A stretch of 64,000 nucleotides of DNA, from the NCBI RefSeq assembly GCF_024502345.1, contig NZ_JALDNN010000001.1; one strand, written 5' to 3'. Numbering within the stretch: position 1 is the first letter of the stretch; the number at the start of each line of letters is the position of its first letter. The notes under the pieces are model-generated. The model was not told where the DNA came from and made no database searches. It saw only the letters and a program-made list of their open reading frames with translations. Shown piece by piece: positions 1,585 to 6,554 of this stretch. This stretch comes from Escherichia coli (GTDB lineage: Bacteria > Pseudomonadota > Gammaproteobacteria > Enterobacterales > Enterobacteriaceae). The position numbers were made by a program, and so were the translations under genes.

Positions 1585-1725
1585 ATGTCAGATATCACCG
1601 CAAATGTTGTGGTAAGCATGCCTTCGCAACTCTTCACTATGGCGCGTTCTTTTAAAGCGGTTGCCAATGGTAAAATTTATATCGGTAAAATTGACACTGA
1701 CCCGGTAAATCCTGAAAACCAGATT
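1585..1725 (+). pseudogene. P22-type tailspike gene, 5' fragment (head-binding domain), cut off by an IS insertion
   Basis: [47 protein letters not shown] matches the P22 gp9 N-terminus almost residue for residue; the frame then runs into IS-end sequence and stops. Confidence 0.8.
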
Positions 1726-1761
1726 GATCTTGACCCTCCATCTCCGAACAGCTTTTGTATC

Positions 1762-2643
1762 TTAAGTTAACGATGTCCGCTGCCGCCGGTATTCCCTCGG
1801 GGAGTGATATCCCAGCGCGCTGTGCGGGTGGTTTTCATTGTAATGCGTGAACGCTACTGCAAGGTTTCGCAGTGCTGTTCTCACATCCGGTTTTGGCATG
1901 AACGCGATATAGTCTTCTTTCATCGTTTTCACGAACCGTTCGGCCATGCCATTACTCTGCGGGCTGCTCACCGCTGTTGTGCAGGGCTCCAGATTCAGCT
2001 CTCTCGCGAACCTCCGCGTTTCATACGCGGTATACGCTGAACCGTTATCCGTCAGCCACTGCACCGCTGTGTCGGGCAACCTGTCGCCGAAGCGCTTTTC
2101 CACCGACCTCAGCATCACATCCTGCACGGTCGAACTGTCATAGCCTCCCGTGCTTGCTGCCCAGTCTATGGCCTCACGGTCGCAGCAGTCCAGCGCGAAC
2201 GTTACCCGCAGTTTTTCGCCGTTGTCGCAGCCGAACTCGAAGCCATCTGAACACCAGCGCATATCGCTTTCTGCCACCGCTATCTTGCCCTTATGTTCAC
2301 GCTTCGGTCGCTCTGGTTTGTGATGCAACAACAACAGGTTATGCTCGCTCATTATCCTGTAAAGCCGTTTGGCATTCACAGGTGGCTGTCCCTCTGTGCG
2401 ACGTTGCTTGCGCAGGATGCCCCACACGCGTCGATAACCATAACTCGGCATATCGCTGATAATGTTGAGGATAGCCGACAGTATTTCTGCGTCTGCTTCT
2501 TCATTACGCCGGTTACAGCGCCTGTCCTGCCAGTCGGCAGAACGGTTAATCCGCAGTGACAGTTGCGCACGCGACACGCCCATGGTCCGGCTGACCATGG
2601 CTATTCCCCGTCCTTTGGCAACAAGGGCGCGTGCGCTATCCAT
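1762..2643 (-). CDS. IS transposase OrfB (DDE integrase-like catalytic domain), IS2 InsD homologue
   Basis: 293 aa; motifs shared with IS2 InsD ([55 protein letters not shown]). Confidence 0.85.
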
Positions 2644-2996
2644 TTTCGCGACTGACCGTACTCCACGGCTTCTTTCAGGATCTCAACTTCCATCGTTTTC
2701 TTGCCCAGAAGGCGCTGAAGCTCCCGGACCTGCTTCAGAGCAGCAGTAAGCTCAGAAGCAGGAACGACTTCCTCTCCAGCCGCAACGGCGGTGAGGCTGC
2801 CTTCCTGATATTGCTTCTTCCACTTAAACAGCAGGCTGGGCTGGATACCATGCAGGCGGGCGACATGGGAGACATTCATACCCGGCTCCATCGTCTGCTG
2901 GATAATGGCGATCTTCTCCTGAGGAGTTTTACGTTTACGGACTTCTTGCCCTAACAGGATCCCGGTCATCTCAAAATTGGCGTTAGTGTTAGACAT
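2601..2996 (-). CDS. IS transposase OrfA (HTH DNA-binding), IS2 InsC homologue
   Basis: 131 aa; [61 protein letters not shown] closely parallels IS2 InsC; overlaps OrfB in the -1 frame. Confidence 0.85.
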
Positions 2997-3060
2997 ATAT
3001 TCAAGCCTATCTCTTATCTGGAGATACAGCTACTGTCCGGTGTTTCAGGGGGCTACATCA

Positions 3061-5026
3061 TCCTGAAAACCAGATTCAGGTTTATGTGGAGAATGAGGAT
3101 GGTTCTCACGTTCCTGTTTCGCAGCCAATCATCATTAACGCCGCTGGTTATCCTGTATATAACGGACAGATTGCCAAGTTCGTAACTGTGCAAGGCCACT
3201 CTATGGCTGTTTATGATGCATATGGTGCGCAGCAGTTTTATTTCCCTAATGTGCTGAAATACGACCCTGATCAGTTAAGGAAGGAAATTACATCCACAGG
3301 GAAAGGAAAAGGTGCGGATATGATCCCCCTTCAGCAGGGTGGAACAGTTCAAAGTGCTATATATTATGTTACGCCATCATCGGCAGGAATAACTGGTGAT
3401 GGGACAGATGAAGGAGAAAAATTAATCTATTTGCTAAATAGATATGATGGGTATGTTATCGACCTGTCTGGAATGACAATTAAAACAAGCGAGATGATTA
3501 GTGTTGTTTTCAACAAAAAAACAACAATAAGAAATGGAACTATTATCTATACTGGAGCAGTAAGTCCATTTGTTTTAAAAATAACGTGCTCATCCGTTCT
3601 TTCCATAGAGGATATTGCCATTGACGGCAAGAACAATGCTGCAAAGCTACTCTATGCGCTTTCATCCGATAACAACGCAAAAATATCTATTTCAGGCTAT
3701 TCTGGAAGAAACGCTAGGGAAGCAATTGACACAGGATTATCAACTGCTGCATATATTACGGCAGGCTCATTGTTTAGATGGAAAGAGATTAGGCTGTCAG
3801 ATTCCTCAGCTTATGATATTTCAAGCTCAGGTGGTTCTAATGTTGGTCGCGGGTTTATGGTTCAAAACTTTGAATATTGCTATGTTAGGAATATTTCAGT
3901 ATTCCGAGTTGGACCATATCAGGATGCGGATGGGATATATGCATCATCCCCTAACTATTTATCAGCAGTATTTGATATTAGTGATTCGTATTTTGAAGAC
4001 TGCCAGAAGAGATCAGTCAAATCACAGATAATGAACTCTCGGGTGAGCAATATTGTAGAGCGGCGCACACAGGCCTTTGCTGTTGCTGCTGGGCAGTCAG
4101 CAGTAGACTTGCAGGCAGGAGGTTCTCTAGACGGACTTAGTTGCTTCTATGCTGACGGAGCAGCCCCACAGTCAATCGTTTCAGGTGGTCTTGTCAGTGG
4201 AGCACCGACATTTCGAGGTATTTCTTTGCGAAATATTGACGTCAACTGCGAAGATCCGTCAGATATTATCTCTCGTCTGGTATCATTTTATAATAACTCG
4301 CCGAATACATATGATGGTTACATTGCTGAAAATATAAAATGTAATGCCATAATAGAGAATGTTGGATTTCTGTATAGCAATACAGGAAACACAAATTTTA
4401 ATGTATATCTCTTCAAAGAGGTTATCTTCAGAAACATTCAGTCGTCAGGAATGGCAGGAACGGTGCCAACTGCTGTAATTCAAATAAGCAGAGGTTCCTC
4501 TGCGTATGTGAAGGCTATAGTACGGGTGCAAAACCTCAATCTTGGCGATGGAAATATCGCACCATTGTATTATCTTGACCCATTGCCAGGGGTTACAACT
4601 TTTCTTGATGTTTTATTTCGTCAAGTAAGTAATTGCAGAGGGTTTGATACGCTAACTAACGTAAATTCCGATACATCTCAACGCATCTATGCAGTAACTG
4701 CAGACGTAGCTGAAAATGAATCTACAACACTTTTAATACCAATAAAGACAACAAATGGAAAAACGGCAGTAAAAATATCTGTAATGTATAACTCAAACAG
4801 GGATGAGCATGCAGCAAAGCTATTCACAGAAGGATACTGGTTCTTCGGGTTATCATTGCCATATTATATAGAATCAGTCGCTGGAGTAAAAACACAAACA
4901 AACGTTGGATCTATCGTGGTCACAGTTGCTGAAAACAATTTAGTTGTAAAAAAAATCGCTGGAACCACCGCTGCAAGCGGGCGGATGACAGTGATTATTG
5001 AGCATATATCATGCGTGAATATGTAG
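3061..5026 (+). pseudogene. P22-type tailspike gene, 3' portion (rest of head-binding domain plus a divergent beta-helix receptor-binding domain)
   Basis: Resumes …(PENQI)[50 protein letters not shown]… matching P22 gp9 residues ~45-110, then diverges; the six-frame ORF (3086..5026) starts at an internal Met. AT-rich relative to the flanks. Confidence 0.75.
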
Positions 5027-5160: not shown

Positions 5161-6318
5161 CTATGCCACCCTCTCATCAATCCAGTCCGCCCACCACTGC
5201 ATCATTTCTCTGCGCTTATCGAGATACTGAGCATGGTTGTAAATCCCACGCACAGATCCGCCGTTGGCATGTGCCAGTTGCACTTCAATAGCGTCAGCAG
5301 GCCATTCGTGCTCGTTCATAATCGTGCTGAATTCATGTCTGAATCCGTGACCGCTATCCAGACCCTCATAGCCGATTTGTTTGATCACAAGTAGCACCGC
5401 GTTCTCGCAGATTGGCTTCTTCTTATCGTTGCGCCCGGCAAAAACAAATTCTGATACTGGTTTGGTGATGGAGCTTAACGTAGTGAGAAGTTCAACCACC
5501 TGGTCTGACATCGGGACCACATGAATTTTGCGTCCTTTCATCACACTGGCGTCGATGGTGATAATCCTGTTTTCAAAATCGACGTTCTTCCATAGCATAG
5601 AACGAAGCTCTTTCGTTCTTAGGGCTGTGTAGCGTAAAACTTTGGTCGCAATGAGCGATACAATACTTCCTGAAAATGTTGCCAGTGCTTTGTTGAATGC
5701 CGGGATCTGGTCTGCAGGAAGAAACGGGAAGTTCTTCTTGCGGTATCCCTTCATGGCGTCAGCAAGGTCAGGTGCCGGGTTATATTTAGCCCTACCAGTA
5801 ACAATAGCGTAACGGAAAACCTCGCCGCATCTTCTGCGGGCTTTGTTGGCTCTCTCCATTGCGCCGCGATCTTCAAATCTGCGGATTACTTCCAGCAGTT
5901 GCATCGGCTCAATATCCTGAATTTCAAGGCCGCCGATGATGGGTAAAATGTCGTCATCAAACATTTTGGCAAGTTCAGTTGCATAGCCTACTGACCAGAC
6001 TTGCTTCTTGTGCTCGTACCACTCCTTGTAAATCGCACTAAATGAATTGTTGTTAGACGAAGCCTTTTTCGCCTTTACCGGATCGATGCCAACCGAGATG
6101 TCTTTCCTCGCAGTCCATGCCTTATCCCTTGCTTCCTGCAAAGTCATAAGCGGATATTTTCCGACGGTCAGGATTTTCTCCTTACCGTCAATCTTGTAGC
6201 GAAGCTGCCATACCTTTTTCCCGGATACAGGAACATAAAGGTACAGGCCATTACCATCGAGAAGGCGGTATGGTTTTTCTTTCGGCTTTGCTGCTTCAAT
6301 CTGCTTAACGGTGAGCAT
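5161..6318 (-). CDS. intS: Prophage integrase, tyrosine recombinase (IntS / CPS-53 type)
   Basis: Near-identical by eye to E. coli IntS as I recall it (MLTVKQIEAAKPKEKPYRLLDGNGLYLYVPVSGKKVWQLRYKIDGKEK…HGFRHEF…); next to the tRNA. An in-frame upstream ATG at 6354 would give 397 aa; the annotated start is probably the MLTVKQ Met. Confidence 0.9.
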   Translation of the reverse strand: MLTVKQIEAAKPKEKPYRLLDGNGLYLYVPVSGKKVWQLRYKIDGKEKILTVGKYPLMTLQEARDKAWTARKDISVGIDPVKAKKASSNNNSFSAIYKEWYEHKKQVWSVGYATELAKMFDDDILPIIGGLEIQDIEPMQLLEVIRRFEDRGAMERANKARRRCGEVFRYAIVTGRAKYNPAPDLADAMKGYRKKNFPFLPADQIPAFNKALATFSGSIVSLIATKVLRYTALRTKELRSMLWKNVDFENRIITIDASVMKGRKIHVVPMSDQVVELLTTLSSITKPVSEFVFAGRNDKKKPICENAVLLVIKQIGYEGLDSGHGFRHEFSTIMNEHEWPADAIEVQLAHANGGSVRGIYNHAQYLDKRREMMQWWADWIDERVA

Positions 6319-6479
6319 GGGTAAAAATCCGGTGGGTAAAATTATTTTATCCACTTTTTACCCGTCATGGAGTGCGGCTGTCAACGATCTGAAGCGAACC
6401 ATGACGAACTGTTAGTTTCCGGGAGGCTTGATATTCTGGGGATTTTACGGACTGGTACGGATGGGAGCGAACTGATAAA

Positions 6480-6554
6480 TGGTGTCCCCTGCAGGAATCG
6501 AACCTGCAATTAGCCCTTAGGAGGGGCTCGTTATATCCATTTAACTAAGAGGAC
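6480..6554 (-). tRNA. argW: tRNA-Arg (anticodon CCU); prophage attachment site
   Basis: Reverse complement reads GTCCTCTTAGTTAAATGGATATAACGAGCCCCTCCTAAGGGCTAATTGCAGGTTCGATTCCTGCAGGGGACACCA, with a CCT anticodon in the loop, T-arm GGTTCGATTCC and 3' CCA. Confidence 0.9.

Follow-up and report, generated by a model that had tools for sequence, protein, structure and literature searches.

Target-site duplications of 15–16 bp made by ISEcl1 and its relatives in the IS3 family, as seen from an insertion in an Escherichia coli prophage tailspike gene

Introduction

A P22-like tailspike gene is interrupted by the insertion sequence (IS) ISEcl1 in a stretch of Escherichia coli DNA of 64,000 nucleotides (contig NZ_JALDNN010000001.1 of assembly GCF_024502345.1), which is called the window below. 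The element belongs to the IS3 family, and the same 17-mer, ATCCTGAAAACCAGATT, borders it on both sides. The IS3 family is described as conserved in the length of its target-site duplication (TSD), with 4 bp in the IS407 subgroup, 5 bp in the IS2 subgroup, and 3 bp in the others (PMC10045372). The locus therefore raises the question of what so long a repeat is: the product of an unusual staggered cut, the trace of a secondary rearrangement, or a part of the element itself. We analyzed the repeat in the window, the corresponding uninterrupted alleles, and the insertions of ISEcl1 and its relatives in other replicons. The long repeat is a regular property of ISEcl1 and not an oddity of the tailspike insertion.

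Target-site duplication in the tailspike gene

Perfect copies of the 17-mer are located at 1709–1725 and 3060–3076, one on each side of the IS, as a preliminary description of the window had reported. With up to two mismatches allowed, the 17-mer occurs in these two places only within the 64 kb (0.01 occurrences expected by chance). The copies abut a 1334-bp core, and many copies of an IS3-family element match this core at 100% identity. T preceded and A followed the core in each of the first 23 distinct full-length copies inspected, whatever the flank, so that the element is 1336 bp long, and the outer T (1725) and outer A (3060) of the 17-mer are bases of the IS and not of the target. The true target duplication is 15 bp, TCCTGAAAACCAGAT, at 1710–1724 and 3061–3075. 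Thus, of the 15–17 bp proposed earlier, the lower value holds and the upper one does not: the repeat looks 17 bp long because the target has an A before and a T after the 15 bp, matching the terminal bases of the IS. The features involved are as follows.

1585..1724, plus strand: 5′ fragment of the P22-like tailspike gene left by the IS insertion, with codons 1 to ~47 (head-binding domain); the open reading frame (ORF) starts MSDITANVV
1710..1724: left TSD copy, TCCTGAAAACCAGAT; single in the empty sites L007–L009
1725..3060, minus strand (transposase genes): ISEcl1, 1336 bp with TG...CA ends, IS3 family, closest to IS2
3061..3075: right TSD copy, 15 bp, matching the left copy; single in the empty sites L007–L009
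3061..5026, plus strand: 3′ part of the tailspike gene, comprising the remaining head-binding portion and the receptor-binding part and cut off from the start codon

The IS was excised in silico by joining positions 1400–1725 to 3077–3500. The join aligned in one piece with the tailspike genes of 1139 E. coli genomes and of P22-like phages, and the ORF at 3086..5026 is in frame with the 5′ fragment of the gene after removal of the IS and one TSD copy. Uninterrupted alleles are annotated as “phage head-binding domain-containing protein” or “tailspike”. Three of them (L007, L008, and L009) are colinear with the excised window and carry the 17-mer exactly once, so the second copy is not a natural feature of these alleles. 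The insertion point is codon 46/47 of the tailspike gene of a P22-like prophage in the E. coli chromosome.

Duplication lengths in the ISEcl1 clade

Insertions were gathered from E. coli genomes, plasmids, exact-protein look-ups, metagenome contigs, and viral contigs. After identical junctions had been collapsed, 62 distinct sites remained, belonging to ISEcl1 and four related lineages with OrfB proteins 76–100% identical. Fifty-nine sites were compiled first (49 with a long duplication, 4 with a short one, and 6 with none), and three more 15-bp sites were added afterwards. A scan of genome contigs with the IS end gave two loci only, neither with both flanks usable; of 52 metagenome loci, most ended inside the IS and seven gave both flanks. 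The numbers of sites per duplication length were as follows.

ISEcl1 (DNA at least 93.6% identical; OrfB ~95–100%): 15 bp, 22; 16 bp, 9; 4–5 bp, 3; none, 4
L077-type (OrfB ~76% identical to that of ISEcl1): 15 bp, 7; 16 bp, 2; 4–5 bp, 0; none, 2
ISEc48 (OrfB ~77%): 15 bp, 7; 16 bp, 3; 4–5 bp, 1; none, 0
P0083-type (OrfB 77%): 15 bp, 1; 16 bp, 0; 4–5 bp, 0; none, 0
P0063-type (OrfB 83%): 15 bp, 1; 16 bp, 0; 4–5 bp, 0; none, 0
Survey total, 62 sites: 15 bp, 38; 16 bp, 14; 4–5 bp, 4; none, 6

Among the insertions bearing a TSD, 52 of 56 (~93%) had 15–16 bp and four had 4–5 bp; the short fixed duplication of 3–5 bp, a trait of the IS3 family, is therefore not the rule in this clade. Abutting repeats of 6–14 bp or of more than 16 bp were found at none of the 62 sites. 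If terminal bases of the IS are counted as possible target, the long class reads 15–17 bp and two of the short cases read 4–6 bp. The two copies of the TSD differed by one mismatch in two of the long duplications. Copies without a TSD were scanned again for repeats of up to 39 bp with mismatches allowed; none was found, nor was there any sign of a class of ~25 bp. In all lineages surveyed, the element is 1336 bp long and has TG...CA ends.

Empty sites confirmed both classes. The target in ydeE was a clean 15 bp and that in ydjK a clean 16 bp, each with 100% identity across the join with the intact gene. For the short class, an insertion in ISEcp1 gave 5 bp; more than 3000 plasmids matched its empty site, which was 100% identical across the join. 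In two further short cases, excision restores uninterrupted reading frames; the empty sites of these loci (L075 and L021) were not found in the genome collections searched, and the continuity of the reading frame was used instead. Copies 100% identical to the reference yielded both classes, short at L005 and L021 and long at L002 and L003.

Identity of the element and comparison with IS2

The ends of the element in the window are 5′-TGATCTTGACC...GGGGGCTACATCA-3′, imperfect terminal inverted repeats with TG...CA that are unchanged in all copies. Copies with a core 100% identical to that in the window are present in E. coli chromosomes and on Klebsiella, Enterobacter, Citrobacter, Salmonella, and Proteus plasmids; identical copies in RefSeq are annotated as “IS3 family transposase, programmed frameshift”. 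The name ISEcl1 rests on OV141395.1, in which a 100% identical copy was labelled ISEcl1tnpA / ISEcl1like by the depositors. The window contains a single copy, with the following parts.

1725..1768, plus strand: right terminal inverted repeat (IRR), the end distal to orfB, TGATCTTGACCCTCCATCTCCGAACAG..., aligned position for position to the IRR of IS2
1762..2643, minus strand: orfB, 293 codons, with HTH_21 and the rve DDE catalytic domain, DD(35)E (Pfam HTH_21, rve, rve_3)
2601..2996, minus strand: orfA, 131 codons, HTH_Tnp_1; an ORF overlapping orfB in the -1 frame
3017..3060, minus strand: left terminal inverted repeat (IRL), the end proximal to orfA, TGATGTAGCCCCCTGAAACACCGGACAG... read inward, aligned to the IRL of IS2

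The transposase contains the Pfam domains HTH_Tnp_1, HTH_21, rve, and rve_3, with DD(35)E spacing by inspection of the sequence. A slippery run of A4 (TTTT on the plus strand, 2643–2646) is probably the frameshift site. The fused transposase passed the NCBIfam model of the IS3 family (NF033516, 267.8 bits against a cutoff of 160). The IS481 model NF033577 was not passed (112 against a cutoff of 224), and ISEcl1 also differs from that family in having two ORFs with a frameshift. The closest subfamily models were those of IS2, both below cutoff (NF006918, 414.9 against 597; NF006928, 167.5 against 229). The orfA/orfB layout and the match to the IS3 model also place ISEcl1 outside the IS1202 family.

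IS2 is organized in the same way, with orfA and orfB joined by a -1 frameshift, HTH_Tnp_1, HTH_21, a DD(35)E rve core, and a length of ~1.33 kb. The DNA of ISEcl1 is 69.5% identical to IS2 of E. coli K-12 and its OrfB is 63% identical to the IS2 protein InsD, with indels of 1–2 residues only. Both elements have imperfect inverted repeats with a GCCCCC block 7 nt from each tip. The IRR of IS2, TGGATTTGCCCCTATATTTCCAGACA, and its IRL, TAGACTGGCCCCCTGAATCTCCAGACA, a sequence given in PMC3219604 as well, align base for base with the tips of ISEcl1, and 7 nt precede the GCCCCC / G(A/C)CCC block at each end. The IRL of IS2 ends in TA, which forms the -10 box of the junction promoter (PMC3219604), whereas ISEcl1 has TG at both tips. 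Since its tips are positionally homologous to those of IS2, the long TSD is not a boundary artefact.

The two elements differ in the duplication they make. When IS2 was subjected to the same procedure, the duplication was exactly 5 bp in nine of the 11 copies and a long TSD in none. The tailspike repeat is thus atypically long for the IS3 family, and the suggestion that its element behaves unlike IS2 was borne out; the minor 4–5-bp class of the ISEcl1 clade matches the IS2 length. A relative (P0120-type, 67% OrfB identity), with IS2-like tips and an IRL ending in TA, also gave 5 bp. Since this relative makes 5 bp and the lineage at 76% makes long duplications, the change falls between ~67% and 76% OrfB identity to ISEcl1, and the TSD switch is on the branch leading to the ISEcl1/ISEc48 clade. 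Between the transposases of the clade and those of IS2 and the 5-bp relative, the linker immediately preceding the catalytic core shows an indel pattern of +1/-2 residues, LLLLH.KP--.RP standing against -LLLERKPxxxx; a further indel of 1–2 residues is located more upstream, at RRNEEADAE, and 31 substitutions are fixed. The clade also has TG in place of TA at the IRL tip.

Proposed mechanism of the long duplication

The repeat is very probably the TSD of a simple ISEcl1 insertion, in which the transposase of the clade joins the element ends to the target 15–16 bp apart and, occasionally, 4–5 bp apart. In the pathway of the IS3 family, copying out of the IS yields a circle whose ends abut, the ends are cleaved to 3′-OH and attack both target strands, and repair of the staggered gaps makes the duplication (PMC3219604). 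By homology with IS2 and IS911, ISEcl1 would use the same copy-out-paste-in route via a circular intermediate with abutted ends. The two 3′-OH ends of its circle would attack opposite target strands at phosphates separated by 15–16 bp in a 5′ stagger, a stretch that gap repair would then duplicate. This is the unusual staggered cut that the preliminary description had considered, and it agrees with the single copy in the empty site and with the recurrence of 15–16 bp through the survey.

The minor class of 4–5 bp may be the ancestral IS2-type spacing. The classes are 10–11 bp apart, which would correspond to one turn of B-DNA and would bring both pairs of phosphates onto the same face of the helix; there is precedent for such a helical-turn reading of discrete TSD classes (PMC10045372; bioRxiv 10.1101/2022.12.17.520857). 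A single transpososome may thus engage the target in either of two discrete ways. The longer spacing might come from differently placed catalytic subunits, from a different oligomer, or from a bent or looped target. The broader proposal, that a clade of the IS3 family (ISEcl1, ISEc48, and relatives) switched from a fixed stagger of 3–5 bp to one of 15–16 bp and retained a minor 4–5-bp mode, is one to which we give about even weight.

Several points weigh against this interpretation. The short class comprises four insertions, of which one is backed by an empty site, two by the reading frame, and the ISEc48 case (L107) by neither. The sample was opportunistic (longest contigs and database matches) and identical insertions were collapsed, so that the ratio of 93:7 is rough. 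The stagger is deduced from insertion products and not from strand transfer itself. Among the IS2 copies, numbering 11, rare long duplications could have been missed. The indels, the substitutions, and the TG-versus-TA tip all mark one branch of the tree; they are leads, not causes, and cannot be tied to the TSD trait. As to novelty, a TSD length for ISEcl1 or ISEc48 was found in none of the papers searched, and ISfinder may already list it; a search for these elements together with 15-bp or 16-bp duplications gave nothing relevant, the sole match concerning a xerC site.

The strongest competing account concerns the mechanism only and not the nature of the repeat. The spacing would be set outside the core geometry of the transposase, by a host DNA-bending protein, by a target loop induced by the transposase, or by the “outer” subunits of a tetramer. 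The occurrence of 4–5 and 15–16 bp around copies identical to the reference fits two assemblies or two target conformations, and the same alternatives have been raised for IS481EU (PMC10045372). However, the trait tracks the lineage of the element: IS2 makes 5 bp and ISEcl1 15–16 bp in the same species, E. coli, and a spacing set purely by the host is therefore unlikely. As a whole, we regard this account as possible, although the less probable of the two.

Target choice

The duplication length could also reflect a specific site, if the element recognized a motif of ~15 bp or a hairpin. Site-directed insertion is known from some members of the IS1202 family, which are found at XerCD sites, and from IS1397, which is found at REP palindromes. 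The tailspike target contains a small dyad with a 6-bp stem, CCTGAA-AACCAGA-TTCAGG, at 3062–3080 of the window, overlapping the duplicated 15 bp. Just outside the duplication, the targets also had a weak symmetric preference: on the left, 41% carried A at -1; on the right, 39% carried T at +1; and A/T made up 69–84% at -3.

Nevertheless, when the 49 long sites were aligned from either end, no position exceeded 0.39 bit, dyad symmetry centred on the duplication was at the background level (0.29; background 0.25), the duplication and its flanks had the same AT content, and the interrupted targets were unrelated genes. Because dyad symmetry is not general among the targets of the clade, the dyad in the tailspike gene is coincidental, and specific targeting is a very unlikely source of the duplication length.

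Flank bases matching the terminal bases of the IS on both sides, as in the window, were found at 9 of 35 “15-bp” sites (49 long sites compiled), above expectation. The excess follows from the A at -1 and the T at +1 of the duplication. It could represent a target preference at the scissile positions or a slight imprecision in the joining position.

Rearrangement and boundary placement

In its concrete form, a secondary rearrangement would have involved two IS copies ~10–15 bp apart in sister prophages, with normal TSDs of 3–5 bp, and subsequent homologous recombination. Six of the 62 copies lack a duplication and two pairs share one flank only (L038 with L056, and L101 with L093), so IS copies in this family do undergo recombination or adjacent deletion with each other. 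To explain the long repeat, however, this process would have to yield exactly 15–16 bp at 52 independent sites in differing genes, replicons, and species. Moreover, the window contains one IS copy only, and removal of the IS and one repeat restores the empty sites, in which the sequence is single, perfectly. The rearrangement earlier offered as an explanation can thus be set aside as highly improbable.

The remaining idea, that with misplaced boundaries the element itself accounts for most of the repeat and the target duplication measures 3–5 bp, has next to no chance of being correct: it holds for the two end bases of the 17-mer, T at 1725 and A at 3060, which are invariant IS bases, but the 15–16 bp between the element and the flank differ from site to site and are single in each empty site, and the tips of the inverted repeats match those of IS2 base for base up to the GCCCCC / G(A/C)CCC block.

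Comparison with other transposons making long duplications

Discrete TSDs of ~4–6, 15–16, and 24–25 bp, sometimes within one element, have been described for IS481EU, IS481, and Banshee; IS481EU-7_TV, for example, has TSDs of 4, 15, and 24 bp, and the same work sets these groups apart from the length-conserved IS3 family (PMC10045372). Like ISEcl1, they belong to the DDE superfamily resembling retroviral integrases, have TSD classes ~10 bp apart, and can show more than one class per element. They differ from ISEcl1 in belonging to another family and in encoding the transposase in one ORF with no frameshift. The long class is dominant in the ISEcl1 clade, and the ~25-bp class of these groups was not seen at the 62 sites.

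In the IS1202 family, duplications are 5–6 bp for the ISAba32 subgroup, 15–17 bp for the ISTde1 subgroup, and 27–28 bp for the IS1202 subgroup, and subgroup-specific indels of the transposase have been named as possible determinants of the length (bioRxiv 10.1101/2022.12.17.520857). The spacing of the classes is the same as in the ISEcl1 clade, to which this family is a behavioural analogue only: it is another family with another gene layout, its length classes are split by subgroup and, as far as is reported, not found within one element, and XerCD sites are the targets of its 5-bp subgroup, in contrast to the ISEcl1 clade, which is without site specificity. Duplicating 15–16 bp is thus a known type of behaviour that was not expected of the IS3 family.

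Copies without a duplication and mosaic elements

In NZ_CP026578.2 (L001), ISEcl1 is inserted in a plasmid RepA gene without a target duplication. The same insertion recurs in many plasmids of E. coli, Salmonella, Klebsiella, and Citrobacter (H2, H8, H9, H15, H16, H18, H74–H80, H98, H105), which suggests that this junction spread after an adjacent deletion or an IS-mediated rearrangement and did not arise by simple insertion. On a plasmid contig of GCA_041421435.1 (L092), an IRL end of IS2 (...TGGAGATTCAGGGGGCCAGTCTA) lies 1 bp from the left terminus of ISEcl1; the two elements are abutted end to end with no duplication. Duplications were also absent at L134 (Symbiopectobacterium, 90%) and at L138–146 (93%, one site in many samples).

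Two kinds of mosaic copies, both without a duplication, were found. In E. coli AAQWQF010000014.1 (L129), an ISEc48-like IRL and left part are joined to an IS2-like IRR. In three metagenome contigs (L130–L132), an ISEcl1-like IRL is combined with a different IRR (GGGGCCAAACCA), against which an IS110-family gene is located. The mosaics probably arose from recombination between related IS elements. ISEcl1 copies split into two pieces ~1.17 kb apart by an IS110-family element were also encountered (H1, H20, H22, H24; e.g., NZ_CP171637.1, 1441377–1443876), and an IS110-type element may specifically target ISEcl1.

Prophage context of the insertion

The backbone of the window is E. coli, being 99.9% identical to a complete genome over mnmC–fabB. 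Two features downstream of the broken tailspike gene define its surroundings.

5161–6354, minus strand: integrase gene, adjoining tRNA-Arg(CCT)
6480–6554, minus strand: tRNA-Arg(CCT), beside the integrase gene

They mark the junction between prophage and chromosome at the end of the P22-like prophage. The best tailspike allele was WP_475694501.1 (95% identical). The reconstructed 5′ region of the gene (750 nt) was covered to at least 80% in no complete E. coli genome; its conserved head-binding part, together with the upstream Arc-family gene, and its receptor-binding part were matched by different genomes; shuffling of modules in this way is usual for P22-like tailspikes. The prophage probably makes no functional tailspikes as long as the IS stays in place.

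Significance

The name ISEcl1 is widely used in the literature (about 70 papers), including for copies in IncF plasmids, and resistance plasmids often carry the element, as next to mcr-8.2. With repeats of 3–5 bp in mind, annotators will misplace its boundaries or overlook its duplications, and the 15–16-bp signature separates simple insertions from rearranged copies.

To our knowledge, the distance between the two strand-transfer sites of DDE transposases and retroviral integrases is understood for short staggers only, and we know of no experimental system for the discrete one-turn classes of IS481, IS1202, and IS481EU. For IS2, genetics and purified transposase already exist, and with a close relative whose spacing is different and bimodal, domain and residue swaps can be designed directly. 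If the proposed interpretation is true, the IS3 family shows the target spacing quantised by one helical turn that is known from IS481, IS1202, and IS481EU, and IS2 and ISEcl1, which share host and architecture with OrfB proteins 63% identical, would form a tractable E. coli pair for the study of spacing in integrase-like transpososomes.

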